A stretch of 64,000 bases of DNA, from the IMG/VR virus record IMGVR_UViG_3300041409_000610, positions 1 through 64,000 of that record. One strand, given 5' to 3'. This document shows positions 573 through 48,615 of the stretch, piece after piece. The notes beneath the pieces are model-generated. The model searched no databases, had not been told where the DNA came from, and saw nothing but the letters and a program-made list of their open reading frames with translations. The position numbers were made by a program, and so were the translations under genes. How positions within the stretch are numbered: the stretch's first letter is position 1; the number at the start of each line of letters is the position of its first letter. This DNA comes from a virus. Taxonomy: Duplodnaviria > Caudoviricetes.

Positions 573-608
573 ATTCAGGGCTACGGGTGCCTGTCCGTAG
601 CCCTGAAT
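573..608 (+). terminator. 14-bp perfect inverted repeat (terminator-like hairpin) overlapping a promoter-motif copy
   Basis: ATTCAGGGCTACGG (573-586) / CCGTAGCCCTGAAT (595-608). Confidence 0.6.
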
Positions 609-625
609 CTGGTGCCAATTTGCGA
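590..625 (+). promoter_or_regulatory. conserved bipartite motif, copy 1 (candidate late promoter)
   Basis: CCTGTCC-N17-GCCAATT-TGCGA immediately before the RBS of the 640 gene. Confidence 0.65.
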
Positions 626-639
626 CAAAGGAGGTAATC

Positions 640-798
640 GTGGAGCTGCTCGTTTTGATCTTGGCCATCCTCGCCGTCGCTGGCACCGCGCTGCACACCA
701 TCCTGTGGGCCACGGTCCCGAGCTACCGCAGTCCGCTGCTGTTCCATCTGGCAGCCCTCTGCGGCTTCGTGGCCGTGCTCGTGCTGGCACTGAAGTAG
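640..798 (+). CDS. small two-helix membrane protein (52 aa), absent from the ORF track
   Basis: AAAGGAGGT RBS then GTG; MELLVLILAILAVAGTALHTILWATVPSYRSPLLFHLAALCGFVAVLVLALK. Confidence 0.75.
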   Translation: MELLVLILAILAVAGTALHTILWATVPSYRSPLLFHLAALCGFVAVLVLALK

Positions 799-860
799 CG
801 CCGGGTGGGCCCCGACCCCCTGTAACTGCACGTCCGTCAGGTGACGAGGAGATTTCTGCC

Positions 861-1286
861 GTGCCGATGCGTCCGCTTCCGCGATGGCTGCACCTCTTCG
901 CCTACCTGTTCATGAGCGTCTCGGCCGTCATGTCGTTCTTCGTCCCGCTGGCCAGCTTCGCGCTGGTCAGCTGGAAGATCTACATCTACGTGTGGGCCGC
1001 GTCGCTGACCGTGGGAGGCCTCGTGGGTGTCCTGGGTGCATCCCTGCGAAACCTCGGCTTCGAGCTGGCGGCCATTACTCTGCTGCTCACCGGTTACGCC
1101 GCGTACACAGTGATCTTGTTCGCTCGCGGAGTGACCCTCGTTTCCGATCACCGGATGGCCGAGATTCCGGGCCTGATCTATGTCCTCTTCAGCACGCTCG
1201 CCCTGTGTCTGCTGCTGGTTCGGCGCTATGCCGAGCTGTGGACGATCTTTCACCACGCACCCCGTGTGCGAGGTGACGAGAAGTGA
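861..1286 (+). CDS. four-helix membrane protein (holin-like)
   Basis: GAGGAG RBS, GTG at 861 (or ATG at 867); four hydrophobic segments; GTGA overlap with the next gene. Confidence 0.7.
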   Translation: MPMRPLPRWLHLFAYLFMSVSAVMSFFVPLASFALVSWKIYIYVWAASLTVGGLVGVLGASLRNLGFELAAITLLLTGYAAYTVILFARGVTLVSDHRMAEIPGLIYVLFSTLALCLLLVRRYAELWTIFHHAPRVRGDEK

Positions 1287-1582
1287 GCCTTGAGCTGATC
1301 CTGGGCGCCGTCTTCGGCGGCGGCCTGGCCACCCTTATTGCCACGATGGCTAGGGTTATAGACGGTCGTCGCAAGGGGAAAATAGAGTCGGAAGACTCTG
1401 TTATCACCCGCTTGGAGGCCGAGAACCGGAAGGCCCGCGAGCGCGCCGACGAGGCCGAGATGGAGACCGAGGACTACCGCAAGAAGATGCATCAAGCCGA
1501 GGATGAGGCAGCTCGATACCGGCGACTGCTGATCCAGAACAACATCCCGATGCCCGGCGAGGAGACCGGCCATGTCCATTGA
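1283..1582 (+). CDS. N-terminal membrane anchor plus coiled-coil protein (lysis-cassette type)
   Basis: LILGAVFGGGLATLIA hydrophobic segment, then charged heptads RLEAENRKARERADEAE. Confidence 0.7.
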   Translation: MSLELILGAVFGGGLATLIATMARVIDGRRKGKIESEDSVITRLEAENRKARERADEAEMETEDYRKKMHQAEDEAARYRRLLIQNNIPMPGEETGHVH

Positions 1583-2559: not shown

Positions 2560-3342
2560 GTGCTGAAAAAGCGGGCGATCGCCCAGATCATCGACGCGAT
2601 GGAGCATCCCCGGAAGGGGCTGATCCGCAACGCGGCGCGGCACGAGTTCCAGTACGAGCCACGGCGCGGGATGATCTACGCCCGATCGCGGATGATCTCG
2701 AACCGGGTGAACGACAACTGGGACGGTTTCCCGGCCGAGGAGATCGCCTCGGAGAAGCCCGGCTACGGCTGGCAGACCTTCTTCGGCAAGCCCGCCTTCG
2801 TCAACCACCACAACGAGAACCACCGCCGGGCGCGGGGCGTGATCGTGGACGCCGCGCTGCATCAGCACAGCCAGCCGGACGGCACCCCGGACATCTGGGT
2901 CGAGGGCCTGCACGAGATCGATGCCCAGACCTTTCCCCGGCTGGCGCGCGCCGTCCTGCTCAAGCGGATCGACAAGACCTCGATGGGGGTCGACGTCGAC
3001 TACTCGGTCTGCTCGGCCTGCGGGAACAAGGCCAAGGACATCTTCAGCTACTGCCAGCACATCCCGGGGATGAAGGGCAAGAAGTACTTCGCCTCCGGCG
3101 GGCCGGGCAAGTTCGTCTTCGAGGAGTGCTTCGGCCTGCGGTTCTTCGAAAACAGCCTGCTCGTCGAGGACCCTGCCGACCCCACCGCCATGTTCACCTC
3201 CGCGCCCGTCGCCGGGCCCGGTCTGGAGCACCTCACCGCCGGACTCCAGCGGACGGCCTCTCGCCGCGCGCCAGGCCGGTTCACCCCCGTTGAAGACCTC
3301 GGCCCCCGCTTCGCCGAGTGGTACGAAAGGACCCGCGCATGA
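2560..3342 (+). CDS. putative capsid maturation (prohead) protease with Zn-finger insert
   Basis: TFFGKPAFVNHHN...ARGVIVDA...TSMG (His/Ser pattern of prohead proteases), CSACG...CQH, ENSLLVEDPADPTA; first gene of the head module. Confidence 0.65.
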   Translation: MLKKRAIAQIIDAMEHPRKGLIRNAARHEFQYEPRRGMIYARSRMISNRVNDNWDGFPAEEIASEKPGYGWQTFFGKPAFVNHHNENHRRARGVIVDAALHQHSQPDGTPDIWVEGLHEIDAQTFPRLARAVLLKRIDKTSMGVDVDYSVCSACGNKAKDIFSYCQHIPGMKGKKYFASGGPGKFVFEECFGLRFFENSLLVEDPADPTAMFTSAPVAGPGLEHLTAGLQRTASRRAPGRFTPVEDLGPRFAEWYERTRA

Positions 3343-4418
3343 CCGGCCCGCTGCTCTCGCAGTTCATCCGGCGCGAAGCCGCGCGCTACAACCACCCGAG
3401 CGAGCACCCGTGGTTCAAGGAGAACCCGGTCCACTCCGACCACATCGTGGACCACTGGAACCAGGCCACGGACGACGAGAAGGCCCAGGGCAAGCGCTGG
3501 TACCCGGACGCGCACCTGGTGGCCAAGTCGATCGCCAAGCTCGCGCCGGTCCGGCCGGAGAAGCTCAACGACTCGGCGGCCTACCACGGAGCGCTGGCCG
3601 ACCACGAGCACCGCAAGGCGGCCGCCCAGAGCGCGGGCAAGCCGTTCAACGAGGAGCCGCCGAAGGAGCCGCACGACCTGCGGCACCCGCACGGCGACGC
3701 GCACCTGGGCGCCTCGATGCTGGCGATCTACAGCCCGCAGCAGGGCTGGGCGGGCAACATGCACAACGCAGCTCGCGTTCTGCACGAGGGCAAGGGCATC
3801 GGCGGCAAGGGCTCCGGCATGTTCGCCTCCAAGAGCCAGTCCGACTCGGCGGACAAGGTGCTCGCGGGCGGTCACATGCACGAGGCCGTGAGCGGCCCGA
3901 AGATCCGCGACTTCGGCCACCTGATCGAGCACGGCGGCGACGAGCACCCCGAGGGCCATCCCGACCACCAGTCGCACGTGGTCATCGACCGTCACGCCCT
4001 GGGGGTCGCGACGGGCAAGCGGCTCTCGAACGACGACTACGGCTCGGCGCCGGTGGCGGCCGCGTCCAAGCGCAAGGACGGCACCATCCCGCGCTCGGCG
4101 GGCTACGACCACGTGGTGAACGCCTATCACGAGGCGGGCAAGCGGATCTCCCAGTCGGAGGGCGAGCACGTCCCCGGGCACGCGGTGCAGGCCACCACCT
4201 GGCTGGTCCGCCAGCGGCTGAACCAGGAGGGCGAGAAGTCCGACACCGGCAACCGCGCCAACCTGAACAAGGGCCGCGACAAGGCGCGCAGCAAGGCCGA
4301 GACCGACTGGAGCGACTTCCGGAAGCAGCACCTGCCGGAGATGGAGCACGGCGGGCCGGGCACCGGCTACGTCAAGGAGTCCCGGCGAGGTGGTGCCAGC
4401 TTTCGCGCGGCCCCGTAA
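3339..4418 (+). CDS. conserved phage protein, putative HhH DNA-glycosylase-like fold (DUF7178-like)
   Basis: Motifs WYxxA...LAIYSPQQGWAGN...GPKIRDF...VVIDRHA...AVQATTW; ATGA overlap with the protease stop. Confidence 0.5.
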   Translation: MTGPLLSQFIRREAARYNHPSEHPWFKENPVHSDHIVDHWNQATDDEKAQGKRWYPDAHLVAKSIAKLAPVRPEKLNDSAAYHGALADHEHRKAAAQSAGKPFNEEPPKEPHDLRHPHGDAHLGASMLAIYSPQQGWAGNMHNAARVLHEGKGIGGKGSGMFASKSQSDSADKVLAGGHMHEAVSGPKIRDFGHLIEHGGDEHPEGHPDHQSHVVIDRHALGVATGKRLSNDDYGSAPVAAASKRKDGTIPRSAGYDHVVNAYHEAGKRISQSEGEHVPGHAVQATTWLVRQRLNQEGEKSDTGNRANLNKGRDKARSKAETDWSDFRKQHLPEMEHGGPGTGYVKESRRGGASFRAAP

Positions 4419-5121
4419 CGGGGTCCAGCACGTCGCCTACGGGGAGACGATCGCCCCGCCGAAGGTGGACACCCTGCGGGACGAGAACTGCCCGATCTGC
4501 GGCGAGGACAACGCCTACGACGGCCACCGCTGCTCGATCTGCGGGTACGTCGCGCCGCCGAGCCCGTTCAAGGACCCGGACCTGGGCATGGCCAGCCGGA
4601 TCGACCTGCGCGACCAGCAGGACCAGTTCGACGAGTCGATGATGGCCGACCCGGACCGGATGGCCGAGCAGCAGGAGGGCGGCACCCTCATCTGCAACAA
4701 CTGCGGCACCGAGTTCCCGCAGGAGCCGCCGGAGACCGTCGACACCGACGAGGCCGCGCCGGACGTGTCCGCCGAGGAGACCGAAGAGGGCGAAGGCGCC
4801 ACCGAGGGCGACATCTGCCCGGCGTGCGAGAACGGTCAGCTCGTGGCCCAGGACACCGTGGCCGACGAGGACGCCCAGGAAGGCGTGATCGACCCCGAGG
4901 AGGACCCGGACGCCGAGGGCGAGGGCAACCCGTTCGGTGGCGCGGATCCCGACGCCGACGAGGACCAGGACGGCGTCCCGGACGACGAAGAGGACCAGGA
5001 CGAGGAGGAGCCGCCCGGCGTGGCGGTGAAGTCCTCCGACGGCCCCGAGGACGAAGACGACGACGAGGATGAGGCCGACGATCAGCCTGTCTTCAAGCGC
5101 AAGCCCAAACCCAAGCAGTAG
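4390..5121 (+). CDS. acidic Zn-ribbon head-associated protein
   Basis: CPIC..CSIC and CNNC..CPAC pairs; very acidic C-terminal half. Confidence 0.65.
   Translation: MVPAFARPRNGVQHVAYGETIAPPKVDTLRDENCPICGEDNAYDGHRCSICGYVAPPSPFKDPDLGMASRIDLRDQQDQFDESMMADPDRMAEQQEGGTLICNNCGTEFPQEPPETVDTDEAAPDVSAEETEEGEGATEGDICPACENGQLVAQDTVADEDAQEGVIDPEEDPDAEGEGNPFGGADPDADEDQDGVPDDEEDQDEEEPPGVAVKSSDGPEDEDDDEDEADDQPVFKRKPKPKQ
5086..5121 (+). promoter_or_regulatory. conserved bipartite motif, copy 3 (in the last codons of the upstream gene)
   Basis: CCTGTCT-N17-CCCAAGC-AGTAG upstream of the 5155 gene. Confidence 0.55.
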
Positions 5122-6118: not shown

Positions 6119-6154
6119 GAAAGGCCCCGAACTTCCCCGAGTTCGGGGCCTTTC
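6119..6154 (+). terminator. intrinsic terminator
   Basis: GAAAGGCCCCGAACT / AGTTCGGGGCCTTTC stem after the stop. Confidence 0.75.
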
Positions 6155-6166: not shown

Positions 6167-6204
6167 CCTGTTCAACCGCTCGGCGGAGCACAGCCAATGT
6201 GTGA
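6167..6204 (+). promoter_or_regulatory. conserved bipartite motif, copy 4 (longer spacer)
   Basis: CCTGTTC-N19-GCCAATG-TGTGA upstream of the decoration/capsid genes. Confidence 0.5.
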
Positions 6205-6274: not shown

Positions 6275-6835
6275 ATGCTGAGGACCACGCTGGCCAACTC
6301 CTGGGCCAAGCGCACGCTGAAGCCGCTGTACGCGTTCTCCCAGAGCACCCCCAAGGCCGTGTTCCTGGACCCGGCGTGGATCGCGGCCCCGGCCGTGCCG
6401 ATCTACGCGGGGATGGCGATGGCGAAGACCATCGGTGACTCGGTGACGCTCGTCGGCGACGGAACCACCGGCCCCCTGGTGCCCTACGGCATCGCGGCGT
6501 TCATGGAGGGTGTCCCGGGCATCGAGTCCGAGATCACCAACCAGGGCGGCCCGAACCCGTGCGCTGTCTGGGTCCTGGGCCCGGACGCCGAGTTCGAGGT
6601 CACGGCCCCGGCCATGGACGCCTCGGCGACCTGGCTCGACCCGGGTACCGGCTTCCCCGCGCTGGTGTACGCGTACACCACGACCGCGAAGCGAGGCCAG
6701 CTCTGCCCCGTCGGCGCGGGCACCGTCGGCACCACCATCACCTCGAAGCCCGTGGCGCGTTTGCTGAAGGTGAGCGCCGCCAACAAGATCGTCATCGGCG
6801 GGCTCGACCCCAACTGGGCCAGCGACGTCGCCTGA
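6275..6835 (+). CDS. putative capsid decoration / minor head protein
   Basis: GGAGGAGGG RBS, ATG at 6275; beta-rich Gly/Ala/Pro protein directly upstream of the major capsid gene. Confidence 0.6.
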   Translation: MLRTTLANSWAKRTLKPLYAFSQSTPKAVFLDPAWIAAPAVPIYAGMAMAKTIGDSVTLVGDGTTGPLVPYGIAAFMEGVPGIESEITNQGGPNPCAVWVLGPDAEFEVTAPAMDASATWLDPGTGFPALVYAYTTTAKRGQLCPVGAGTVGTTITSKPVARLLKVSAANKIVIGGLDPNWASDVA

Positions 6836-6865: not shown

Positions 6866-7906
6866 ATGACCGCAGCTCTCGTCCAGACGCCGGGTCTGGT
6901 GGCGAACGGCCTGAGGAAGCAGGCCGCGCCGACCAAGTCCGACGACTACGTGGCCAAGCTGATCGAGCGCCAGGAGAAGCAGGGCAAGCTCACCTTCAAG
7001 GCGAAGACCGAGAAGCTGGCTCTGATCCTCCAGGACGGCACCAACGGCATCCGCCGTCTCGGTGTCGGCATGGTGGGCCCGATCCAGCTGAAGCTCCGCT
7101 ACCAGGGCATCACGCGCAACGTCCTCATGGAGGACCCGGTCACCCCGGGCACTCCGGTGGAGTACGACGTCTGGGATGACCTGGGCCAGGCGTACATCAT
7201 GTCCGGCCACGAAGGCGAAGTCAGGATCAACGCCTTCGAGGGCAAGCGTGTCCCGATCCGGTTCTACCGGATCGCCTCGTTCCCGGCGATCCGCAAGGAA
7301 GACCTCGTCTACCTGCGGATCAACGCCGTCGAGCAGGCCCAGGATGAGACGAAGCAGTCCATCCTGAAGCAGGAGGACTTCCGCCTCATGCTGATCCTCC
7401 AGGCGGCGGTGAACGACTACGCGAACCGCGCCGACCACGTGGTTACCCCGGACCACCGGGTGACCCAGGCCGGTACGCAGTTCACTCCGGCTGCGCTCTA
7501 CGCGGCGGTCTCCCAGACCGACATGCACGAGCTTCAGTCCTCGCGTCTGCTCGTCAACCCGATGGACTACCGGGACCTGTACAAATGGACGATCAACGAC
7601 ACCGGCTGGGCCTTCAAGGACCGCGTTGTCGCTGGTGAGAGCATCACCAGCTTCGGCGAGTTCCAGATCCAGCGGTCGATCATCGTCCCGCAGGGCACGA
7701 TCTTCCTGACCCCGGAGCCGAACTTCCTGGGTGTCTTCCCGGTGCTCTACTCGCTCGACGTCGAGGAGAACCACCAGGTCGAGTCGTTCTGGAAGGGCTG
7801 GGTGTTCGACGAGATGGTCTGCATGGCCATCCTGAACCCCCGTGGCCTGGCGACCATCACGAAGACGGTGAGCAGCACCCCGATCACGGTCCCGGCGGCT
7901 CCCTGA
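6866..7906 (+). CDS. major capsid protein
   Basis: 346 aa; MVGPIQLKLRYQGITRNVL...FYRIASFPAIRKEDL...GWVFDEMVCMAILNPRG resembles Bxz1-type MCP; followed by a strong terminator. Confidence 0.85.
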   Translation: MTAALVQTPGLVANGLRKQAAPTKSDDYVAKLIERQEKQGKLTFKAKTEKLALILQDGTNGIRRLGVGMVGPIQLKLRYQGITRNVLMEDPVTPGTPVEYDVWDDLGQAYIMSGHEGEVRINAFEGKRVPIRFYRIASFPAIRKEDLVYLRINAVEQAQDETKQSILKQEDFRLMLILQAAVNDYANRADHVVTPDHRVTQAGTQFTPAALYAAVSQTDMHELQSSRLLVNPMDYRDLYKWTINDTGWAFKDRVVAGESITSFGEFQIQRSIIVPQGTIFLTPEPNFLGVFPVLYSLDVEENHQVESFWKGWVFDEMVCMAILNPRGLATITKTVSSTPITVPAAP

Positions 7907-7963: not shown

Positions 7964-7999
7964 CCTGTCGGTGGCCGGGGACGCGCTGCCAATTCGCGA
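7964..7999 (+). promoter_or_regulatory. conserved bipartite motif, copy 5
   Basis: CCTGTCG-N17-GCCAATT-CGCGA right after the terminator, before the 8026 gene. Confidence 0.65.
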
Positions 8000-16090: not shown

Positions 16091-16126
16091 CCTGTCGGCT
16101 CCCCGGGTGCCCAACCCAACTGATGA
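16091..16126 (+). promoter_or_regulatory. conserved bipartite motif, copy 6
   Basis: CCTGTCG-N17-CCCAACT-GATGA upstream of the tail sheath gene. Confidence 0.7.
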
Positions 16127-16153: not shown

Positions 16154-17665
16154 ATGACCGCATCGCTGGACTTCAGCCAATACCGCCACCCCGGCGTGTA
16201 CGTGGACGCGGGTCAGAGCCCCACGATCGCCACGGCCGGGGTCGCCCCCACCGTCGTGTGCATCGTCGGCTCTGGAGTCGGCTACAACACCTTCACCGAG
16301 ACCATCAGCTTCGCCTCAGCGTCTGCGGTGCAGCTGACCAAGCGCGGGATCAACCCGGCGACGATCCAGGTGCGCGGGTACATCACCGACCCGAACGCCA
16401 CCGGTCAGAGCATCCCGTACCTGTTCGCGCCGGACGTCGGCGCGACGACGCACGACTACGCGGTCACCACGAACACCTCGGGCGGCACGGCGAACTCGAC
16501 CACGACGATCACCAAGTCGTCCGGTGGCAAGATCGAGACCGCGTACCCGCAGGTCACGGTGACCTACCAGTACACCGACGCGAGCTACCACTCGCTGAAC
16601 TTCTTCGAGGACTACACCTCGATCGTCGAGACGTACGGCCCGGCCCTGGACCCGACGACCGGCGCCCTGGTCAGCCCGATCACCTTCGCCGCCGGAGTGG
16701 CCGTCCTCAACGGCGCGAACCAGATCTACGCCATCGCGCTCGACCCCGCGATCGGCACCGTGGCCCAGCAGTTCTCCGACGCCTACCAGACGCTGTCGGC
16801 GAACAACATCAACGTGAACCTGGTGGTTCCCCTGTTCGACGGGGTAACCGACCAGGCGGCCCTCGGCGGCATGCTCGCGACGCTGAACGCGGCCCTCCAG
16901 GCGGACGCGAACAAGGGCATCCTGCGGATGGCCATCTGCGGTCTCGACCAGACCTACGCGGGCTCGATCGCGAACGTGGCGGCGCTGGCGAGCGGCATCA
17001 GCTCCAACCGGATCGTCATGGCCTACCCGAACCAGCTGGAGTACTACAACGGCGTCCTGAACCAGACGGTCACCGTGGACGGCTTCTACCTGGCCGCCGC
17101 CTACGCCGGGGTGGTCTCGCGCCAGGACATCCAGATGCCGCTGACGCACAAGACCGTCCAGGGCTTCTCGGCCATCACGGCCACGGTGCTCAAGACCCTG
17201 ACGCCGACGAACAAGGACACCCTGGCCAAGGGCGGCGTGGCGCTGGTCGAGCCCGACCGGCAGGGACGGCTGCGCGTCCGGCACGGCGTCACGACGAACT
17301 TCGGCGGCGGCATCCTCACGCGCGAGATCTCGCTGGTGCGGGTCCAGGACGGGCTTTACAACCTGCTCCAGGACACCATGGAGAACTCGGGCCTGATCGG
17401 CATCCCGATCACCGACGCCACCGCGCTCCAGGTCAAGAGCGTCGTCTCCGGCGCCCTGGAGACCGCGAAGAACACCAACGCGCTGATCGTCGACTACAAC
17501 TCGCTGGCCGTGCGCCAGCAGAGCCCGCCCTCGGGCGACCCGACGGTGATCGACGTCCGATTCGCCTACCGGCCGCCGTGGCCCCTGAACTACATCCTGG
17601 TCAGCTTCACCGTCGACACCTCGAACGCGGACGCCGTGTCGAACCTGAACCAGACCCTGACCTGA
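16154..17665 (+). CDS. tail sheath protein
   Basis: YRHPGVYV N-terminus; LAAAYAG...PLTHKTV...GVALVE...VRHGVTT...REISLVRVQD; VRFAYRPPWPLNYILVSF C-terminus. Confidence 0.9.
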   Translation: MTASLDFSQYRHPGVYVDAGQSPTIATAGVAPTVVCIVGSGVGYNTFTETISFASASAVQLTKRGINPATIQVRGYITDPNATGQSIPYLFAPDVGATTHDYAVTTNTSGGTANSTTTITKSSGGKIETAYPQVTVTYQYTDASYHSLNFFEDYTSIVETYGPALDPTTGALVSPITFAAGVAVLNGANQIYAIALDPAIGTVAQQFSDAYQTLSANNINVNLVVPLFDGVTDQAALGGMLATLNAALQADANKGILRMAICGLDQTYAGSIANVAALASGISSNRIVMAYPNQLEYYNGVLNQTVTVDGFYLAAAYAGVVSRQDIQMPLTHKTVQGFSAITATVLKTLTPTNKDTLAKGGVALVEPDRQGRLRVRHGVTTNFGGGILTREISLVRVQDGLYNLLQDTMENSGLIGIPITDATALQVKSVVSGALETAKNTNALIVDYNSLAVRQQSPPSGDPTVIDVRFAYRPPWPLNYILVSFTVDTSNADAVSNLNQTLT

Positions 17666-18196: not shown

Positions 18197-18772
18197 ATGC
18201 CCGACCTCTTCGCCGACGAGGCGGCCGCTGAGGCGGCCTTCCAGCTACCCCCGGACCCCCGCGAGGAGATCCGGGCGCTCGGCAGCGGCTCGGCGTTCCC
18301 TGAGCACGCTGGGGACCGGGAACCGGCCAAGGAGGAGAAGCCCGCTCCGGAGCCGGTCGAGGAGGACGTCCCCGAGTTCGACCCCGCGCACCGGCAGCCG
18401 TTCAAGGGCCTGCTCTACGTCGGCGCGCTGACGAAGAGCTTCGAGCTGTTCGGCCACCGCTTCACGATCGCCACCCCGACCCAGACCGAGCGGCTCCAGA
18501 TCGGTCAGATCATCGAGCCCTTCCAGAACACGATGACTGCCGAGATCGCCTACCAGACCGCGCTGGTGGCCGCCTACCTCGTGGACATCGACGGCACGAA
18601 GCTGCCCGAGCCGGTGGTGACCAACCCGAAGGAGACGGCTCTGCACGACCGGTTCCGGTGGGCCTCAGAGAACCTCCGGCGCCCGGTGCTGGACAAGATC
18701 TTTGACGAGTGCCTGAAGCTCGATCACCAGGTGGACGAGGTGCTGGAGGCCATGGGAAAAGCGTCGGGCTGA
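18197..18772 (+). CDS. tail assembly chaperone (G-like)
   Basis: Between tube and tape measure; ends ATG GGA AAA GCG TCG GGC TGA, which contains the slippery GGGAAAA. Confidence 0.75.
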   Translation: MPDLFADEAAAEAAFQLPPDPREEIRALGSGSAFPEHAGDREPAKEEKPAPEPVEEDVPEFDPAHRQPFKGLLYVGALTKSFELFGHRFTIATPTQTERLQIGQIIEPFQNTMTAEIAYQTALVAAYLVDIDGTKLPEPVVTNPKETALHDRFRWASENLRRPVLDKIFDECLKLDHQVDEVLEAMGKASG

Positions 18773-19221
18773 CCGGAGTCGACCCGTGGCTGGCGGGAGA
18801 GCTGCGGTTGGCCCAGCGCCAGGGCTTGCTGACCGGCCGCCACCTGTCCGACGTGCAGGCCAACTCGATCACGATCCTCGACTGGATCGATCGTCTGGGC
18901 AGCTTCCGGCGCGACGGCGAGCACGAGCTGCTCATCCTCAAGGCCGCCCTGATCGCGCGCAACGAGCCCGAGCGCTTCATGCCCGAGACCCTGTTCGCGG
19001 ATTGGTTCAAGAGCCCAACTGATGACGAAGATCCCGAGTCGCTCGACGTCGAGACGCAGGAAGGCAAGCTCGGCGTGGACTACTCGGCCGTGGACTTCAA
19101 GGGCAGCGAGGCCATGGACGAGTACCAGGCGCTGATGCGCCAGCTCGGCGAGATGACCTCGGGGTCCTTCAACGGTACGGAACTGCGCATCGCCGGAGGA
19201 GAGGACGGGGGGTGGCTCTAG
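18754..19221 (+). CDS. -1 frameshift extension of the tail assembly chaperone (GT-like)
   Basis: G GGA AAA at 18754-18760; -1 frame is open (KSVGLTGVDPWL...GGWL) to TAG 19221, directly before the tape measure start. Confidence 0.75.
   Translation, partial: GKSVGLTGVDPWLAGELRLAQRQGLLTGRHLSDVQANSITILDWIDRLGSFRRDGEHELLILKAALIARNEPERFMPETLFADWFKSPTDDEDPESLDVETQEGKLGVDYSAVDFKGSEAMDEYQALMRQLGEMTSGSFNGTELRIAGGEDGGWL
18990..19025 (+). promoter_or_regulatory. conserved bipartite motif, copy 7 (intragenic, upstream of tape measure)
   Basis: CCTGTTC-N17-CCCAACT-GATGA; codons here are unusually A/T-ending (CCA ACT GAT). Confidence 0.6.
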
Positions 19222-21699
19222 GTGCCGAAGAAGAACCGCAGCGGTGGTGACTCGACGCCGACCGGGCGTCCCCGGCAGTCCACATCCGCCGACGAGATGC
19301 TCGCTCAGGGCCGGATCCCCATGGGCCCGCAGGGCCAATCCGGCAAGGACCCGCTGAAGGTCCAGCTGGTCTCCGGCGACAAGGAGTTCTTCGAGGCGCT
19401 CAAGTCGGCGCTGGGCACCGGCACCGGCGCGGCCACCGGGTCGAATGAGCAGTTCCAGGCGATGCTCTCGTCTTCGGAGGCCATGCAGCAGGCCGCGCGC
19501 GAGATCACCTCGGAGCTGAGGACGTCCGTGGCGATGATGCGCGATCTCCAGGTCCGCTCCACCGAGAACCTGAACCGGATGACCGAGCAGACCGCCCGGG
19601 ACCGGCAGGTCGACCGGGACCAGATGGACACCCTGATCCAGCTGCTCTCGGGTGGCGGCGGGATCGGCGGAGGCGGTGGTCACGGCGGGGGCGGTCATGG
19701 CGGTGGTGGAGGAGGCCATGGTGGCGGGTACTACGACCCCAGCCGGGGCGGCTTCACCTCCTACGGCGGCATCGGCAGCCGCGTAAACGCCCGCCTGGCG
19801 ACCGCGCTGCACCAGAACTACGGCACGCCCTCGCTGGGCCAGCACTCCAGTGCGCACACCACGCGCAACGCCGCGATGATGAGCCGGGCCGCCGGGGCGC
19901 TGGCGCACGGCGGGATCGGCGCAGGCCTGCGCCGGGTGCCCTACATCGGCGCCGCCATCACGGCGGTGGAGGGCGTCAACGACGCGGCCGAGTGGCTCAC
20001 CAACGAGCGCGCGAAGAACGCCCAGTACCAGAGCATGCTGGGCGGCCAGAACAGCTCCATGGACAACCGGGGCAACCCGGTGACCTCCATGGGCGGCCTG
20101 ATGGGCGACCTCTCGGAGTTCTTCTCCGGCCAGTCCTCCTCGTCGACCTCCGGGCTCGGCAACCGGATGGCCGAAGAGGGCTACGTGATGGGCCAGCGCT
20201 TCTCCGGCGGCGGCTTCGACGAGACCAGCGCCCGGCAGCTGTTTCAGGGCGTCACGAGCCTGGGCTACACCGGCGACCGGCGCGCGGGCGCCCTGGACTT
20301 CGCCAGCTCGAACTACAAGACCATGGGCATGGGCCAGGACGAGTCCATGCAGCTGATCGCGACGTCGGCGAAGTACGCCCAGTCGAGCCTCCAGGGGCTC
20401 TCCCGTGAGCTTCAGAACGTCACCAAGACGGCCGTCCGGACCGGGCAGAGCGCCCAGGTCGTCCGGCAGGCCTTCGCTGAGACGTACGCGGCCGCGCTCC
20501 AGGCGTCGGGCGGGGCCGGATCCGGCGCGCTCGCGGCCGCCGCCACGAACATGACCGGCGCGGGCGGGCGCCTGCTGGCGGGCTCGAACCCGCTCTCGGT
20601 GCTGAACGACCCGACCTCGAAGTACCAGATGGCCGGGTCCATGGGCATGACGCCCAGCCAGCTGGAGGCGGCCGGGCAGACGAACCCGGGCATCACCATG
20701 CAGGCGCTGGGGAAGCGCTCGGACATGTACATGCGCTCCCTGGGCACCGGCACCATGAGCACGCTCAACGACCTGATCGGCCAGCAGGGCGGCAAGCAGA
20801 AGGTGGCCGCCGACTCGAACCTCATGGGCAACGTGGCCAGCCAGCTGATGGCCAGCCAGGGCTACGACATCACGGTGGCCAAGAACATCGTGGGCCAGAT
20901 CGACCCGAGCATGGCCAACGCCAGCGACTCGGCTATCGCGCAGTACATCGTGAACTACGTGGCGGGCAACAATCCCGGGAACCAGGCCGCTGCGCTGAAG
21001 GACTCGATGACGCCCAAGAACATCTCCTCGGGCGAGCGGGACAAGATCAAGAACCCGAACAACCAGGGCGACCCGACCGGCAAGGGGTTCGGCAACTTCG
21101 CCTGGGACCAGAACAAGCGCGGCAAGGACATGCAGTCCGACGCGGGCATGTGGTCGAACCTGTTCAACGGCGACCAGACCGAGCAGGGCTACAACCTCCA
21201 GGTCAACTCGGACTACTACAACGAGCTGACCAAGGGCACCGGCAAGTCCGACCCGGTGATCGAGAAGCTGATCTCCGAGTACGGCACCGACCCGAACATC
21301 CGGTTCAAGGTCAAGACGAAGAACGGCGATAAGGCCGTCACCTTCGGAGAGGCGATCCGGAACTTCTCCGACCAGCTCTCGTCGGGCCAGGCGTCCATCG
21401 TTTCGTCCAATAAGGACATCAACAACCGTCAGGTGAAGGACCTCGCCGGGAGCACCGGCGCGCAGGTCACTTCCGACAAGAACGACTGGCAGGGCTCGGA
21501 CTTCAACAAGGTGGCCGACGAGATCGGCGCGGGCACAGCCGACCAGGCGGCTGCGGACAACAGCGGCGGCGGCTCGATCACGCTCTCGCTGTCCCCCGAG
21601 GCGCAGCGGCTGTTCCAGGTCAACACGAGCGGCAATGTGGACCTGGACAACTCGGCCTCGGCCGGGCGCCCGTCTCCGCAGTCGACGGGGCCGAAGTAA
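19222..21699 (+). CDS. tape measure protein
   Basis: 825 aa Ala/Gly/Ser/Met-rich helical protein after the frameshifted chaperone. Confidence 0.75.
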   Translation: MPKKNRSGGDSTPTGRPRQSTSADEMLAQGRIPMGPQGQSGKDPLKVQLVSGDKEFFEALKSALGTGTGAATGSNEQFQAMLSSSEAMQQAAREITSELRTSVAMMRDLQVRSTENLNRMTEQTARDRQVDRDQMDTLIQLLSGGGGIGGGGGHGGGGHGGGGGGHGGGYYDPSRGGFTSYGGIGSRVNARLATALHQNYGTPSLGQHSSAHTTRNAAMMSRAAGALAHGGIGAGLRRVPYIGAAITAVEGVNDAAEWLTNERAKNAQYQSMLGGQNSSMDNRGNPVTSMGGLMGDLSEFFSGQSSSSTSGLGNRMAEEGYVMGQRFSGGGFDETSARQLFQGVTSLGYTGDRRAGALDFASSNYKTMGMGQDESMQLIATSAKYAQSSLQGLSRELQNVTKTAVRTGQSAQVVRQAFAETYAAALQASGGAGSGALAAAATNMTGAGGRLLAGSNPLSVLNDPTSKYQMAGSMGMTPSQLEAAGQTNPGITMQALGKRSDMYMRSLGTGTMSTLNDLIGQQGGKQKVAADSNLMGNVASQLMASQGYDITVAKNIVGQIDPSMANASDSAIAQYIVNYVAGNNPGNQAAALKDSMTPKNISSGERDKIKNPNNQGDPTGKGFGNFAWDQNKRGKDMQSDAGMWSNLFNGDQTEQGYNLQVNSDYYNELTKGTGKSDPVIEKLISEYGTDPNIRFKVKTKNGDKAVTFGEAIRNFSDQLSSGQASIVSSNKDINNRQVKDLAGSTGAQVTSDKNDWQGSDFNKVADEIGAGTADQAAADNSGGGSITLSLSPEAQRLFQVNTSGNVDLDNSASAGRPSPQSTGPK

Positions 21700-26687: not shown

Positions 26688-27122
26688 ATCAAGACGCTCG
26701 CGCTCGTGAATGGCGACCTCGCCATCGGGACGAACGGCGGCTACCTGACGTACTCGGGCGCCCAGCGGATCAAGCAGGACCTGACGCTCGGGCTGACCGA
26801 GGAGTACGGGACCGACCGCTTCCACCCCACCTACGGCTCGGTCGTGCAGGCCTATCTGGGCCAGGTCCTCTCGGCGGACATCATGCAGCTGGTGCGGGCC
26901 GAGGTGAACCGGGTCCTCCAGAACTACCTGGTCATCCAGCAGAATGAGGTCATCCGGGACACCGTGGTCGACGTGCAGGGGCGCTATGACACCTCCGACG
27001 TCGTCCAGTCCGTCGACAACGTGGCCGCCCGGTCCGTGCTCGACACGATCTACATCACGGCGACCCTCACCACTCTCTCGCGCGAGAGCGTGACCATCTC
27101 CCGGCAGGTGACCCCCTCATGA
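26688..27122 (+). CDS. baseplate wedge subunit (gp25-like), probable ATC start
   Basis: KTLALVNGDLAI...IKQDL...GTDRFHPTYGS gp25-like motif; GGGAGG RBS 6 nt before in-frame ATC. Confidence 0.75.
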   Translation: MKTLALVNGDLAIGTNGGYLTYSGAQRIKQDLTLGLTEEYGTDRFHPTYGSVVQAYLGQVLSADIMQLVRAEVNRVLQNYLVIQQNEVIRDTVVDVQGRYDTSDVVQSVDNVAARSVLDTIYITATLTTLSRESVTISRQVTPS

Positions 27123-27451
27123 GGTTCCTCAAGCGCGCTGAGCAGCCCGAACAGCTTCCTCCCGGGACCACCGTGGCGCCCTCGGAGCTGGCCGCCGTCC
27201 GGCAGACGCTGGAGGACGGCCGCGCCTTCGCGCCGCACTGCGACCAGCGGATCCTGCACCCGCCCGGTGAGTGCTGGTCGTGCGATCTGTACCCGGACTG
27301 GCAGAAGCTCCGCGTGCTGTGGGGCATCGACTTCTCCGGCCACTCCACGCCGGGGAACCTGCCGTGCCCCGCCGACTACCACCGTCCGCCGAACTCGCCC
27401 TCCGATCACCGGAACTGGCCGAACAACCGAGCTGAGAGGGAGCGCGGATGA
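27119..27451 (+). CDS. small Cys/His-rich hypothetical protein
   Basis: ATGA overlaps on both sides; PHCDQRILH...CWSCD...PCPAD. Confidence 0.65.
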   Translation: MRFLKRAEQPEQLPPGTTVAPSELAAVRQTLEDGRAFAPHCDQRILHPPGECWSCDLYPDWQKLRVLWGIDFSGHSTPGNLPCPADYHRPPNSPSDHRNWPNNRAERERG

Positions 27452-29274
27452 CCTCGACCGGCGACATCGCGGCCAAGATGGTCGCGGCGCTCAACGCCGC
27501 CGAGCCGGACCTGGATGTCTCCGTAGGCACCGTGGCCCGGAAGCTGATCGACGCCGTCTCGGAGTCGATCGCCGAGGCCTACTCGGACTCGCACCTGATC
27601 CAGTACCAGTACGACATCGACTCGAAGTCCGGCGGCGACCTCGACGACTTCTGCGCGCTGTTCGGCATCACCCGGATCCCCTCGTCCCGGTCCCAGGGCG
27701 TGGTCACCTTCACCCGGCCGAATGACCAGTTCGCCGCGACCACGGCCCTGGTCATCCCGCCCGGCACGCAGGTGGTCGCCCAGACGAACCCGATCATCTA
27801 CGTGATGACCACCGTGTCCGCCGTGATGAGCCCTGGCCAGCTGACCGCCGACGTGCCGGTTCAGGCGGTCGTGGCGGGCACGAGCGGCAACGTCGCGGCC
27901 GGGATGCTGGTCACCGTGGCCACGGCCGTCTCCGGTATCGCCAGGGTGGTGAACGCGGGCCCGCTCTCCGGCGGCTCGAACCAGGAGTCGGACGCCGACC
28001 TGCGCACCCGCTTCCGGAACACCGTCTTCCGCTCGCTGGCGGGCACCCAGAGCATGTACCAGGCGATCGCCCTGGCGACGCCGCAGGACCCCACGATGCC
28101 AAACACCCGCGCGGTGACGCAGGTGAACGTGCTCGGGGCCTCGAAGCGCTACCGCGAGCAGATCCAGGTGGTGGCCGGGACGGCGGCCAGCACCGTGCTC
28201 CGGGCGGCCTACATCTTCCCGGACAACGTCTACTGCGGCGCCGACATCGACGCGGGGAACCTGCTCACCCAGGGGACGAACTTCACCTTCACGCCGTCGA
28301 ACCCGACCAACGGAACCAGCGCCACGGCGGCCCTGACCGCGCTGACCGGCATGCCGGACGGGATCTACGACCTCGACTTCGAGTACGTGCCGAGGGCCTC
28401 GCGCAACGACCCCGCCAACACACGCTTCGCCAAGGGCGGGATCAACAACCGGGTCGACGTGTGGATCAACGGCACGATCGCCGACGTCGCCACGCAGAGC
28501 GTGAGCTTCTCGAACTCGCGGCTGTTCACCTCCGGGTTCAACGACCCGTACTACAACCAGGCCTTCTCCCAGGCCAGCGCGGCGGCTCCGACCCCGCCGC
28601 TGTCCAATATCTTCATCCCGCTGGCCTACGGCCCGGTGCTGGCCGTGCCGGACACCCTGGTGATCAACGGCGTGACCTACGTCGAGGGCGCGGACTACTG
28701 GATCACCCAGCGCGAGGACTGCTTCGGGATGAGCCCGGGATCGCTGTTCGGGCTGTCCTGGCAGACCAGCCGGGTGCCGCCCAACAACGCGGTGTTCGCG
28801 ATCACCTACAACTACAACCGGATCGCCCGCGACGTCCAGGACAACATCGCCCTGTGGCGGCTGGTCGGCACCGACGCGCAGACCCACTGCGGTCTGCGCC
28901 GCATGGTCAAGTTCCACTTCGCCATCGTCTACGACCGCGCGTACGAGGCCAGCTCGGTGAACACGAACATCGACATCGCGCTGAGCGCCCTGTGCTCCAG
29001 CCTTGGTTTCGGGGCCTCGCTTCAGGTCTCCGACGTTCTCCAGACTGTCCACAATGTACCCGGCGTGGACAACGTCCGGTTCCTGACCTCCACCGACGAC
29101 GGCACCAACTACGCCATGGCCCAGATGTCGCCGTGGACGGCGAACTCCCAGCTCTCGCTCTACGCATCCGGCGGCCGGGCGATCGACGCGACCTTCGGCA
29201 ACAGCGAGTACCCCGTGTTCCACTCCTCGCGCATCGTCGCCAAGGCGCCGAACACCTTCATGATCGGGGCGTGA
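27448..29274 (+). CDS. baseplate J-like protein
   Basis: LDDFCALFGITR...GVVTF...VQAVVAGTSGNV...SGGSNQESDADLRTR; VHNVPGVDNV. Confidence 0.85.
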   Translation: MTSTGDIAAKMVAALNAAEPDLDVSVGTVARKLIDAVSESIAEAYSDSHLIQYQYDIDSKSGGDLDDFCALFGITRIPSSRSQGVVTFTRPNDQFAATTALVIPPGTQVVAQTNPIIYVMTTVSAVMSPGQLTADVPVQAVVAGTSGNVAAGMLVTVATAVSGIARVVNAGPLSGGSNQESDADLRTRFRNTVFRSLAGTQSMYQAIALATPQDPTMPNTRAVTQVNVLGASKRYREQIQVVAGTAASTVLRAAYIFPDNVYCGADIDAGNLLTQGTNFTFTPSNPTNGTSATAALTALTGMPDGIYDLDFEYVPRASRNDPANTRFAKGGINNRVDVWINGTIADVATQSVSFSNSRLFTSGFNDPYYNQAFSQASAAAPTPPLSNIFIPLAYGPVLAVPDTLVINGVTYVEGADYWITQREDCFGMSPGSLFGLSWQTSRVPPNNAVFAITYNYNRIARDVQDNIALWRLVGTDAQTHCGLRRMVKFHFAIVYDRAYEASSVNTNIDIALSALCSSLGFGASLQVSDVLQTVHNVPGVDNVRFLTSTDDGTNYAMAQMSPWTANSQLSLYASGGRAIDATFGNSEYPVFHSSRIVAKAPNTFMIGA

Positions 29275-39152: not shown

Positions 39153-39182
39153 CAGTACCAGAATGGGTAGTGTTGGCACAAC
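39153..39182 (-). promoter_or_regulatory. housekeeping-sigma-type promoter for dinG
   Basis: Minus strand TTGTGC-N18-TACTGT with TGG just upstream of -10; GGAGGG RBS downstream. Confidence 0.45.
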
Positions 39183-41354: not shown

Positions 41355-41391
41355 CCTGCCCTTCCGCTGATCTCCGCTCCCCAACCTGCGG
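41355..41391 (+). promoter_or_regulatory. conserved bipartite motif, copy 9
   Basis: CCTGCCC-N18-CCCAACC-TGCGG upstream of the lysis cassette. Confidence 0.6.
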
Positions 41392-43324: not shown

Positions 43325-43714
43325 ATGACCACCCTCGAACCGGCCAAGCCGGTCATCTTCCTGGGCCGCGAGCCCGTGCAGTGGCTTCAGCTCATCTCCG
43401 GCGTGCTGGTCTTCCTCACGCCGATCCTGCACGTGAGCGTGGAGCTGAACGGCGCGATCATCGCGGTGCTCACGGCTCTGTTCGGCGTGCTCACCGCGCT
43501 GGCAGTGTCCAAGGAGAAGGCCGCGCCCACCGTGGCCGGTCTGCTGAAGGCCCTGATCGCGCTGGCGCTGGCGCTGCGGTTCCACATCAGCCCGGAGATC
43601 CAGGCGGGTGCCATGGTGTTCGTCGAGGCCGGTGTGGCCTGGTACCTGCGCACGCAGGTGTTCGCGCCTGCACTGAAGCCGGTCGTCGCGCCGGTGGTCC
43701 CGGTCGACGCCTGA
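43325..43714 (+). CDS. holin
   Basis: AAAAGGAG RBS; IFLGREPV start, four hydrophobic segments, RTQV end typical of actinophage holins. Confidence 0.75.
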   Translation: MTTLEPAKPVIFLGREPVQWLQLISGVLVFLTPILHVSVELNGAIIAVLTALFGVLTALAVSKEKAAPTVAGLLKALIALALALRFHISPEIQAGAMVFVEAGVAWYLRTQVFAPALKPVVAPVVPVDA

Positions 43715-46614: not shown

Positions 46615-46618
46615 TCCC

Positions 46619-46655
46619 GAGGAGACCCGGCGCCCCCGCGACGCCGGGTCTCCTC
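46619..46655 (+). terminator. intrinsic terminator
   Basis: GAGGAGACCCGGCG / CGCCGGGTCTCCTC then TTCT. Confidence 0.7.
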
Positions 46656-46675
46656 TTCTGCCCTGGAGGCGCATC

Positions 46676-47227
46676 ATGCTCGAAACGACCGAACCCTTCG
46701 TGATCAGTGGCGAGGGGGTGTTGACACCACCCGACCGCGACCGCTGGGTGACACCCGAGATGGTCCTCAACGGCCCCACCTACACGTCCTCGGAGGTCGC
46801 CGAGGTCTTCTTCGCCAAGTCGACGAACTGGCTGCGCAAGCGGCTCTGGGAGCGCCGGGACGACTGGGACCCGGACCGCACCGACGCCGGGCACCGCCGG
46901 TTCAACCTGGCTCAGATCGAGGACCTGGCGCACCTGCTGCTGCGCGAGCGCGCGCTGAAGCCGCCAGAGTTCGCGATGATCATCCGGCACGTCAAGGCCT
47001 CGGCACTCCAGCACGGCTACACGCTGGGCGACACCGGCTTCCTGCTGGCCCACTGGAACGGCCAGCTGGCTTCCCGGCGGCAGATGGTCCTGCTGGTGCT
47101 CCAACGGCTGGAGGAGTGGGACGCGGGTCGGAACCCGAGTCACCCGGACGCGCAGCTCGATCGAGCCATCGACGACGCCGCCGACGGCATCCGGCGCGGC
47201 GAGATGCTCCCCCTGGAGGCCTCGTGA
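46676..47227 (+). CDS. MerR-like HTH DNA-binding protein
   Basis: YTSSEVAEVFFAKSTNWLR...RTDAGHRRFNLAQIE. Confidence 0.65.
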   Translation: MLETTEPFVISGEGVLTPPDRDRWVTPEMVLNGPTYTSSEVAEVFFAKSTNWLRKRLWERRDDWDPDRTDAGHRRFNLAQIEDLAHLLLRERALKPPEFAMIIRHVKASALQHGYTLGDTGFLLAHWNGQLASRRQMVLLVLQRLEEWDAGRNPSHPDAQLDRAIDDAADGIRRGEMLPLEAS

Positions 47228-47634
47228 CGGAGGACCAGGGCGTCTGCGGCTTCGGCCTGGTCGACGGCTCGCTGTGCGTGCTTCCCCGGGTCGCGCTGCG
47301 CTGCTCGGCGCACGAGGCGCTCGTCTGCAACGGCTGCCGCAAACGCGAGGCCACCCACGAGTGCCTGCACAGCGACGGCGCGGTGCTGTGCGAGGCCTGC
47401 GAGCACATCAGCGGGTCCCAGCACGGTCCCCGGCCGAACCCGCGCGACGTGGTGGACGAGGAGATGAGCCGGGCGGTCGAGCTGATCCTGGAGCAGCTCA
47501 GCGCCACCGAGGTACTGCCCAGCACCGGCCCCCAGCGCCGGGACGCGGCCGCGCAGATCTGGCGCGGCCTGTCCAACCACATCGCCATGAAGGTGCTCGC
47601 CGGAATGGCTCGACCCGAAGGCGAGACCTCGTGA
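47224..47634 (+). CDS. Cys/His-rich Zn-finger hypothetical protein
   Basis: GTGA overlaps; CSAH, CNGC..ATHEC, LCEACEH. Confidence 0.6.
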   Translation: MTEDQGVCGFGLVDGSLCVLPRVALRCSAHEALVCNGCRKREATHECLHSDGAVLCEACEHISGSQHGPRPNPRDVVDEEMSRAVELILEQLSATEVLPSTGPQRRDAAAQIWRGLSNHIAMKVLAGMARPEGETS

Positions 47635-48578
47635 CCAAGTACCTGCTGGTCGACGGCAACAACATCGCGGCCAGGGCCGCCCACGCCTCCTGGGCGACGA
47701 ACACACTCTCGACCGACGACGGCGTCCCGACCGCCGCGCTGATGTTCTTCATCAACTCGCTGGCCAAGGTCATCGGCGAAGAGCACCCGACCCACGTCGC
47801 GGTGGCCTGGGACGGCCGGAGCGAGTTCCGGCACCGCCTGCTGCCCACCTACAAGGCGAACCGCAAGACGGCGGCGCCCGAGCCCGGGAAGGACTACACC
47901 GCCGCGTTCCCGCTGATGCGCGAGTTCCTGGGCGCGGCGGGGATCTTCCAGCATCGGCTGGCCGAGTTCGAGGCCGACGACCTGGTGGCCACCTGGTGGT
48001 GGAAGATCCACCAGGCCGAGGAGATCATCATCCTCTCCGGCGACAAGGACCTCTACCAGCTGCTCGGCCCGAGCCCCTGGGCCATCAACACGACCGCGCG
48101 CAAGCCGGTCGGCGGCGGGATCTACGAGAAGTGGACCTCCGAGCGCTTCGTGGAGAAGAACGGCTTCGAGCCGCACCTGTGGCCCCTGGTCGGCGCGCTC
48201 ACCGGTGACACGTCGGACAACATCGACGGGATCAAGGGCGTCGGGCCGAAGCGGGCCGTCAAGCTCCTGAACGACTTCGACTGGAACATCACCAAGGCGA
48301 TCCAGGAGAAGTACCCCGAGCACGTCGAGCTGGTTCGGCGCAACGTGCGGCTGATGGACCTGACCGCCGACCCGATCCCGGACTACGGGAACCACATCAG
48401 GCGGTTCCGGCCCGCGCCGTGCGACAGCCCCGACGGCGCCGTGCTCGACGCCTTCCTGACCCGGTACGAGCTGGCCGGAATCCAGGCCAGCTTCCGGAAG
48501 AACGCCCTCTGGACCCAGGCCAGCGCGGTCGGACGCCCGTTCCGATCGAGCGCGGCGGAAGGGAGGACGAGCCCCTAA
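47631..48578 (+). CDS. 5'-3' exonuclease / flap endonuclease (Pol I N-terminal-like)
   Basis: LLVDGNN, VAWD, YKANR, EADD, SGDKDLYQL, GDTSDNIDGIKGVGPKRA. Confidence 0.92.
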   Translation: MTKYLLVDGNNIAARAAHASWATNTLSTDDGVPTAALMFFINSLAKVIGEEHPTHVAVAWDGRSEFRHRLLPTYKANRKTAAPEPGKDYTAAFPLMREFLGAAGIFQHRLAEFEADDLVATWWWKIHQAEEIIILSGDKDLYQLLGPSPWAINTTARKPVGGGIYEKWTSERFVEKNGFEPHLWPLVGALTGDTSDNIDGIKGVGPKRAVKLLNDFDWNITKAIQEKYPEHVELVRRNVRLMDLTADPIPDYGNHIRRFRPAPCDSPDGAVLDAFLTRYELAGIQASFRKNALWTQASAVGRPFRSSAAEGRTSP

Positions 48579-48615
48579 CCTGCCCATTCCCTCGGGGCCG
48601 CACCCCAATGTGTGC
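48579..48615 (+). promoter_or_regulatory. conserved bipartite motif, copy 10
   Basis: CCTGCCC-N18-CCCAATG-TGTGC in the intergenic gap. Confidence 0.5.

Follow-up and report, generated by a model that had tools for sequence, protein, structure and literature searches.

Which signal turns on the structural and lysis operons of a large uncultured tailed phage, and which protein reads it, are the questions raised by virus record IMGVR_UViG_3300041409_000610 (Duplodnaviria; Caudoviricetes). We analysed its first 64,000 nucleotides (nt), here called the window; the full record is 155,347 bp long and has direct terminal repeats. An original prediction made from the letters of the window had described ten copies of a bipartite motif and proposed them as late promoters: a 7-mer starting with (C/G)CTGYY (box 1), a spacer of free sequence, and SCCAA-N3-RYR (box 2). 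We find that this two-box signal is real, lies far beyond chance, and is specific in strand and position. The ten copies, together with at least three more at genome positions 143836, 148059, and 151650, are probably promoters of one phage-specific class with a sigma-70-like geometry, a reading to which we assign a probability of roughly 0.6.

Occurrence and placement of the two-box signal

The window has a G+C content of 67.6%, and rough gene calls place 230 of 250 genes on the + strand. All ten copies were recovered where the original prediction had put them, all on the + strand and none on the - strand, and the claimed spacer lengths (17 nt in six copies, 18 nt in three, and 19 nt in one) were borne out:

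590 to 624, + strand: copy 1, CCTGTCC, 17-nt spacer, GCCAATTTGCG; ends 21 nt before a GTG at 640
2502 to 2537, + strand: copy 2, GCTGTCA, 18-nt spacer, CCCAATGGGCG; directly behind the stop codon at 2501
5086 to 5120, + strand: copy 3, CCTGTCT, 17-nt spacer, CCCAAGCAGTA; within the last 36 nt of gene 4390-5121
6167 to 6203, + strand: copy 4, CCTGTTC, 19-nt spacer, GCCAATGTGTG; behind a terminator-like hairpin with its stem at 6135-6148
7964 to 7998, + strand: copy 5, CCTGTCG, 17-nt spacer, GCCAATTCGCG; directly behind the terminator hairpin of the capsid gene
16091 to 16125, + strand: copy 6, CCTGTCG, 17-nt spacer, CCCAACTGATG; ends 34 nt before the tail sheath gene
18990 to 19024, + strand: copy 7, CCTGTTC, 17-nt spacer, CCCAACTGATG; inside the open reading frame (ORF) 18709-19221
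26633 to 26667, + strand: copy 8, CCTGTCG, 17-nt spacer, CCCAACTAGTA; 1 nt behind the stop codon at 26631
41355 to 41390, + strand: copy 9, CCTGCCC, 18-nt spacer, CCCAACCTGCG; ends 21 nt before an ATG at 41406
48579 to 48614, + strand: copy 10, CCTGCCC, 18-nt spacer, CCCAATGTGTG; directly behind the stop codon of the exonuclease gene at 48578

The count of ten on the + strand and none on the - strand compares with a mean of 0.125 and a maximum of 1 in 200 dinucleotide-preserving shuffles. When the RYR part was left out, the pattern returned the identical ten sites (shuffle mean 0.965, maximum 4). The motif also held up in a search of the whole genome of 155,347 bp, where CCTGYY-N19-21-CCAA was found 12 times in the forward and 0 times in the reverse direction, with 2 and 1 matches in a control read backwards. 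A loose form of the pattern gave 34 matches on the + strand, many of them within genes, and 1 on the - strand. Because the pattern had been chosen post hoc, all 4-mer dyads with spacings of 12-26 nt were also scored in an unbiased scan, in which CTGT..CAAT ranked 33rd and CTGT..CCAA 35th among 36,087 scored dyads (15 observed, 2.48 expected, P 6e-8); the dyads ranked above them belong mostly to the early-promoter family described below, or are a few unrelated dyads. A scan at 16 bits with a position weight matrix, built from the same ten sites (leave-one-out scores 9.6 to 26.4), gave 14 matches on the + strand and 0 on the - strand (shuffle mean 0.4), adding the genome positions 143836, 148059, and 151650 beyond the window as well as 69507 and weaker candidates. 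Only the boxes are shared, the spacers and flanks being unrelated between copies. A mobile intergenic repeat or regulatory cassette was rejected because the copies are not alike along their whole length.

Eight of the ten copies are wholly intergenic in a window whose intergenic share, by the rough gene calls, is 7.8% (binomial P 5e-8), and all ten lie on the strand of the genes. Eight end 19-40 nt ahead of a start codon, with strong Shine-Dalgarno sequences in between, and the remaining two end 77 and 203 nt ahead. As the original prediction had stated, two copies stand directly behind terminators, with hairpins preceding 6167 and 7964; a further hairpin overlaps box 1 at 590.

The genes served are mainly those of the virion. 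Copy 1 precedes the GTG at 640 of an ORF of 52 amino acids with a hydrophobic N-terminus and no family hit, for which the earlier label "membrane cluster" is plausible. Copy 2 ends 28 nt before a head-maturation-protease-like gene (2560-3342; phrog_18299, 4.9e-24), and copy 3 ends 40 nt before an ATG at 5155. Behind copy 4 follow a gene of 186 amino acids (6275-6835; phrog_2783) and the major capsid gene (6866-7906). Copy 5 ends 33 nt before an ATG at 8026, and copy 6 serves the tail sheath gene (16154-17665; phrog_2839, 1.4e-75). The ORF that holds copy 7 is probably the frameshift arm of a tail chaperone, judging from its place, and the distance from the end of the copy to the gene in the tape-measure position (19222-21699) is 203 nt; both roles were assigned from synteny with Tonenili alone, and the tape-measure-position gene has no family hit. 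Copy 8 precedes small ORFs and then a baseplate wedge gene (27448-29274; phrog_6, 3.1e-51). The first gene behind it has an ATG after GGAGG in relative L101; the window has ATC at 26681-26690, and the only GTG nearby is out of frame. Copy 9 sits in a divergent gap of 145 nt past about 4 kb of - strand genes, and its operon holds two genes of unknown family followed by a holin-like gene (43325-43714; phrog_9752, 5.3e-13). Copy 10 precedes an ORF of 128 amino acids and then DnaB-like helicase and primase genes.

The earlier label "scaffold" is not supported for the protein of 315 amino acids encoded from 5155, which has no family hit. The assignment of the motif to structural and lysis operons is right for most copies and wrong for 48579, with its replication genes; the label "late" fits most copies, not all. 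The copies at 41355 and 48579 and a further one at genome position 74082 all combine CCTGCCC with an 18-nt spacer, are located outside the block of virion genes, and do not keep box 1 in G001, the complete relative introduced below. They may form a separate, perhaps middle, subclass.

Conservation in close relatives and across the clade

At 60-80% DNA identity, the capsid gene region matches Cluster C mycobacteriophages and a few phages of Gordonia and Rhodococcus (223 records), and capsid protein identity to Cluster C mycobacteriophages, Rhodococcus phage E3, and Gordonia phages reaches at most 58%. The nearer relatives are uncultured viral contigs only, of which 193 were confirmed, with capsid identities of 71-99% among the best 80. 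One of the relatives, G001, is complete at 149,735 bp; its capsid protein is 88% identical and its proteins are mostly 40-70% identical to those of the phage studied here. WhiB proteins are restricted to the phylum Actinobacteria. The WhiB gene at genome position 75347, together with the hosts of those relatives whose host is known, points to an actinobacterium as the host.

Conservation of the boxes was counted in 20 site-by-relative comparisons among the closest relatives. Box 1 differed at 7 of 140 positions, almost always at the free seventh one, box 2 at 8 of 260, and the spacer at 65 of 351; in the flanks, 69 of 600 positions differed upstream and 50 of 600 downstream. The boxes change 4-6 times less than the spacer (3-5% versus 18.5%; Fisher P 3e-11, an inexact value as the rows share ancestry). 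Two conserved boxes set 17-19 nt apart by a spacer of free sequence agree with the -35/-10 geometry that the original prediction had proposed.

The same picture is seen site by site. At 590, both boxes are identical in relatives L012 and L014 and are kept in L017 and G001 despite a changed spacer. At 2502, CTGTY and GCCCAATGrrCGAGC are kept in L012, L014, L016, L017, and L018, the spacers being otherwise unalignable. Copy 3 is kept in L012-L018, and CCTGTY of copy 4 is found at the equivalent place in L012-L018 and in most distant relatives. At 7964, CCTGTC and GCCAATTCGCGAAGGG are exact in L012, L013, and L014, with 6-9 of 17 spacer bases differing. Copy 6 is kept in L012/L102, L014/L101, and G001; the boxes of copy 7 are kept in L101 and G001 with a different spacer; copy 8 is kept in L101 with 9 spacer changes, and in G001. 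Copy 9 is the only conserved island of its gap in L103, and copy 10 is kept in L103 and L104. In G001 as a whole, recognizable sites occupy 11 of 13 places (590, 2502, 5086, 6167, 7964, 16091, 18990, 26633, 143836, 148059, and 151650).

Counts across the clade were made on the capsid loci of the best 80 of the 193 confirmed capsid relatives (80 loci, 964,651 nt). For the generalized form CTGTY-N20-24-AA-N3-5-GYGA, 136 matches were counted on the gene strand, in 53 of the 80 loci, and none on the opposite strand, with 2 and 2 matches in reversed-sequence controls; the motif is thus found in related phages. A second form, CCTGTY-N25-28-GYGAA, occurs 40 times on the + and 3 times on the - strand (controls 2 and 2). 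Among the loci that lack the stricter pattern, six were examined, and in five of them CCTGTC, in one case as ACTGTC, stands behind a terminator before the gene in the scaffold position. Distant relatives carry CCTGTC at the same intergenic places, followed by a second box that reads CTCAAC.., GAAGAAGTGAAGG, or AAGGGGTGAAG. The box-bearing relatives span 46-70% GC, and in the relative with 46% GC six of the seven CCTGTC copies on the + strand have ..AAAGGGTrrAG at a constant distance behind them. The SCCAA-N3-RYR box of the original prediction is therefore present here as a lineage-specific form, and it is CCTGTC and GYGAAG that are constant in the clade. The clade-wide signal thus consists of CCTGTC and a start-region box about 26 nt further on (...AAGGGGTGAAG), and SCCAAY is this lineage's version of the -10 part between them.

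Two other sequence patterns were noticed in the relatives. In L051, L053, L054, and L058, short units of 7-8 nt (..CCTGCC / ..GCC(N)4, for example CCCTGCCCTGCCGCGCCCTGCCCTGCCATGCC) come in runs behind the capsid terminator. Rhodococcus phage E3 (L097, HM114277.1) has a CAYCAATWGG box ahead of many late genes; a pattern of this kind, chosen post hoc, was found 7 times forward and 0 times in reverse (controls 1 and 0). It has the CAAT core of box 2 of the phage studied here but stands at no constant distance from any CCTGTC. E3 can be grown, and the box may be its counterpart of the promoter element described here.

The promoter reading and its alternatives

The reading of the sites as promoters is well supported and consistent with every comparison made. 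It is suggested by the strand specificity of the sites, their position ahead of operons and often behind terminators, their conserved boxes and free spacer of fixed length, and the lack of a shared RNA structure. In the layout that we propose, box 1 (CCTGTY) would occupy the -35 place and nSCCAA, about 17 nt after it, the -10 place; RYR, or GYGA(AG), 6-7 nt past nSCCAA, would mark the expected start point. Leaders of about 11-33 nt would then carry the Shine-Dalgarno sequences. The sites would restart transcription behind terminators and head the operons for head, tail, baseplate, and lysis proteins as well as two operons of the replication arm. For the operon behind 41355, a promoter of its own appears to be needed because the divergent gap follows 4 kb of - strand genes. 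We infer three things here: that the sites are promoters, that they fire late, and that the host core RNA polymerase recognizes them by means of a phage-encoded specificity factor and not with a host sigma factor alone. The last of these is suggested because the box is kept across relatives of 46-70% GC that probably have different hosts.

The boxes are, as had been claimed, unlike those of housekeeping promoters: a sigma-70 scan of positions 1-20 kb gave 2 sites (0.9 expected), 0 of them at motif copies. Promoters of housekeeping type form a separate family in the same genome. TTGACC-N18-TAGTGT has 19 copies on the + strand, all between genome positions 68,275 and 138,717. A perfect palindrome (cACACTACCC-N4-GGGTAGTGTg) covers their -10 place, and they have in common a leader that ends in ..CCGCACCGGAGG. 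They resemble early promoters that carry the operator of a shut-off repressor, and the roughly 19 members would serve the block of small genes at 68-139 kb. A further good copy is found at 85702 on the - strand, and G001 has the same promoter family. Two housekeeping sites named by the original prediction were partly right: the site at 45832 reads TTGAAA-N17-TATTCT, and near 39153 there is an early-type GGGTAGTGT at 39166-39174. This latter element lies on the + strand between two - strand genes and would drive antisense transcription if active.

Several results weigh against the promoter reading. The spacing between CCTGTC and SCCAAY is 18-20 nt, which is long for the sigma-70 family and fits only when the -10 element is taken as nSCCAA. 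The late-promoter proposal of the original prediction agrees with all comparisons made and lacks its sigma factor: sigma region 2 (PF04542) had no match at E <=1 in this genome and five relatives, and TIGR02937 reached only 9.4 bits in this genome, on a helix-turn-helix. A phage sigma factor, if there is one, would have to be too diverged for detection. In the stretches of cultured relatives that were read, the motif was not seen in Tonenili (50 kb) or E3 (41 kb), and 40 kb of Stormageddon gave three matches only, which are coding-like. At the places of 41355 and 48579, G001 keeps box 2 only (box 1 of the latter reads CCAGCCC), and because box 1 is lost there these two copies may be of a different class. 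When 13 sites were aligned with G001 automatically, identity was only 76% for box 1 and 73% for box 2, compared with 58% for the spacer and 55-73% for the flanks; a number of these alignments were visibly misplaced, and they were replaced by the count on close relatives. Coding constraint could explain part of the conservation of the copy at 18990, which falls within an ORF and is 203 nt away from the following start codon.

The alternatives to a phage-specific promoter class differ in what they leave unexplained. That a host alternative sigma factor, for example of the extracytoplasmic function (ECF) type, reads the sites without any phage specificity factor would suit the bipartite geometry, the GC-rich boxes, and the failure to find a sigma region-2 domain in the phage; some mycobacterial ECF consensus sequences end in a ..GAAT-like -10 element, a literature search having given nothing usable on this point. 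We consider this reading unlikely, as CCTGTC and its partner box are kept across relatives of 46-70% GC, probably with different hosts, and the -10 part drifts by phage lineage (SCCAAY, CTCAAC, GAAGAA, AAGGGG), which is easier to understand with a reader that evolves with the phage. On these two grounds, a phage-encoded reader appears more likely than a host sigma factor. It is more improbable still that the sites bind a phage protein in a role other than that of a promoter, such as a repressor, the loading of an antiterminator, or a genome organizer. The genome encodes several helix-turn-helix proteins, and two boxes with a free spacer would suit a two-domain or dimeric binder; the boxes are, however, asymmetric and always oriented with the downstream gene. 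At 6167, 7964, and 41355 they are moreover the sole conserved elements between terminators and ribosome-binding sites, in operons that would otherwise lack a promoter, the sigma-70-type scan having found none there.

A signal that acts in RNA, as a processing site, a nut-like antitermination site, or a translational operator, would account for the strand specificity. Short stems surround box 2 in some copies, and copy 2 lies within a long hairpin with compensatory changes in relatives. Yet the ten sites have no shared fold (minimum free energy z-scores -3.0 to +2.35, with predicted structures that differ by site), no Rfam family matched the window at gathering thresholds, and the left flank of box 2 varies uncompensated in other lineages where GGGG is fixed. 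Box 1 often lies behind or within a terminator and would hence be absent from the downstream message, and the distance to the start codon ranges from 19 to 203 nt. An RNA element was rejected on the lack of an Rfam match, the lack of a common fold, and the absence of covariation in other lineages for the short box-2 stems, and we regard this explanation as very improbable. Promoters are preferred over an RNA signal because 6167 and 7964 follow terminators, 590 overlaps a hairpin, and 41355 lies in a divergent gap. The chance that the motif is a by-product of base composition is close to nil: the pattern was defined after looking, and CTG and GCC-AAG are common in gene-strand coding sequence, but it is rejected by the shuffles and the unbiased scan of dyads, by the enrichment of the copies in intergenic sequence, and by their conservation at orthologous places.

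The hairpin around copy 2 was also inspected in its own right. It spans 2509-2575 (CACCCGCTCACCTCG ... CGAGGTGAGCGGGTG) and encloses box 2, and its compensatory changes are found in L016, L017, and L018. It could be a terminator of the upstream gene, a processing site, or a control that acts on the 2502 promoter alone.

Candidate readers and comparison with known phage promoters

Searches with PF04542, PF08281, PF04545, and TIGR02937 gave only matches at the level of a helix-turn-helix, and a recognizable phage sigma factor was rejected as a candidate on this basis. Helix-turn-helix motifs resembling sigma region 4 lie at 61883-61987 and 63387-63494, and the second of these belongs to the candidate that was followed up:

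63228 to 63935, + strand: candidate reader gene, 235 amino acids; sigma-4/YlxM-like helix-turn-helix at residues 54-89

The 63228 protein matches Pfam Sigma70_r4_2 with 18.3 bits, below the cut-off of 25.7 bits, and shows a weak sequence match to YlxM-type proteins (E 0.032). Its structural model has a predicted local distance difference test (pLDDT) score of 83.9, and Foldseek aligned it with the sigma-4 domains of SigL, SigD, SigC, and SigA at TMt 0.65-0.73, with no match at E <=0.001. Its N-terminal 110-125 residues were found by profile search in the records of 11 of 13 relatives, and in G001 by tblastn; the two records without a match are fragments, 40% and 18% complete. Several relatives keep only these 110-125 residues, and the tails differ. 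Four complete genomes with 0-1 hits of the stricter pattern at their capsid loci are among the matches, and their loci still carry CCTGTC sites. Among cultured relatives, the family is matched weakly in Tonenili (1e-5) and E3 (6e-4) and not in Stormageddon. Because both the gene and the CCTGTC box are clade-wide, their phyletic distribution does not discriminate. No promoter could be read upstream of the gene, and the upstream region is conserved. The C-terminal part of the family ends in ..CHLACVNxEHA.L and by eye resembles HNH-type endonuclease motifs, with no Pfam hit.

Gene 63228 is the only clade-core candidate reader that we found. The specific proposal that, in this clade of uncultured myoviruses of 120-166 kb, CCTGTC is read by a sigma-4-like protein of the 63228 family and not by a sigma factor must be considered doubtful. 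If it is true, the 63228 protein takes over or replaces -35 recognition, which would be a new form of sigma appropriation without a phage sigma region-2 protein.

Four other proteins were tried and rejected. The three-helix-turn-helix protein encoded at 61700-62389 resembles HNH-endonuclease DNA-binding parts, was found only in G001 among 9 genomes, and does not track the motif. A GerE-type protein of 90 amino acids (genome position 142092) is present in G001 and, weakly, in 2 more of 9 genomes, and does not track the motif. WhiB (75347) was found in 2 of 6 motif-bearing relatives and also in relatives in which no motif was seen, and likewise does not track it. As a possible sigma-2-like partner, the product of 62386-63075 matched only phrog_2769, a family of unknown function, with a weak lead to UvsY.

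Phage-specific late promoters are textbook knowledge, and several known systems can be set beside the signal described here. The middle and late promoters of Bacillus phage SPO1 are read by the phage sigma factors gp28 and gp33/gp34. The likeness lies in phage-specific two-box -35/-10 promoters with a non-host consensus ahead of later genes, the early genes being served by host-type promoters; SPO1, however, has recognizable sigma-family proteins, whereas here region 2 was not detected, and the boxes are unrelated and GC-rich. The late promoters of T4 have TATAAATA at -10 and are read with gp55, gp33, and the gp45 clamp. They share with the present case the many copies of one phage signal before virion genes, and a host core polymerase redirected by phage proteins would be common to both. 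They lack a -35 element, whereas here the -35-like CCTGTC is the best conserved part, and a gp55-like protein was not identified. In the middle promoters of T4, a MotA box replaces the -35 element, with sigma appropriation by AsiA. A phage box at the -35 place, possibly bound by a small phage DNA-binding protein, is the likeness, and it would suit a sigma-4-like product of the 63228 type; T4 keeps a host-type -10 element (TAnnnT), whereas here it is SCCAAY or AAGGGG. With mycobacteriophage late promoters, the present signal shares a probable host of the same phylum and the late class of virion genes.

The signal is not surprising in kind, since phage-specific promoters are already known. To our knowledge, the late promoters of large phages related to those of actinobacteria are almost uncharacterized. 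In the literature on Cluster C late promoters, E3 promoters, actinobacteriophage motifs, and the box itself, we found no description of the signal. According to a review, few mycobacteriophage late promoters have been characterized, and such promoters are highly active and could serve for expression (PMC9262239). Passages of another article contain nothing on E3 promoters (PMC13313380).

The analysis yields a defined two-box signal with at least 13 copies in this one genome and a clade-wide consensus from 80 contigs, and it sets this signal in clear contrast to the operator-bearing early promoters of the same phage. The transcription programme of an uncultured phage group is thereby laid out from sequence alone, and the analysis provides short DNA parts together with a few candidate factors.

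At the far end of the genome, the copy at 151650 stands between the portal gene, which it follows directly, and a giant ORF. This ORF starts at genome position 151696 and, with more than 1217 amino acids, runs off the end of the record. It contains a NUDIX-like stretch (phrog_1198) and may continue in the open frames at window positions 1-562.

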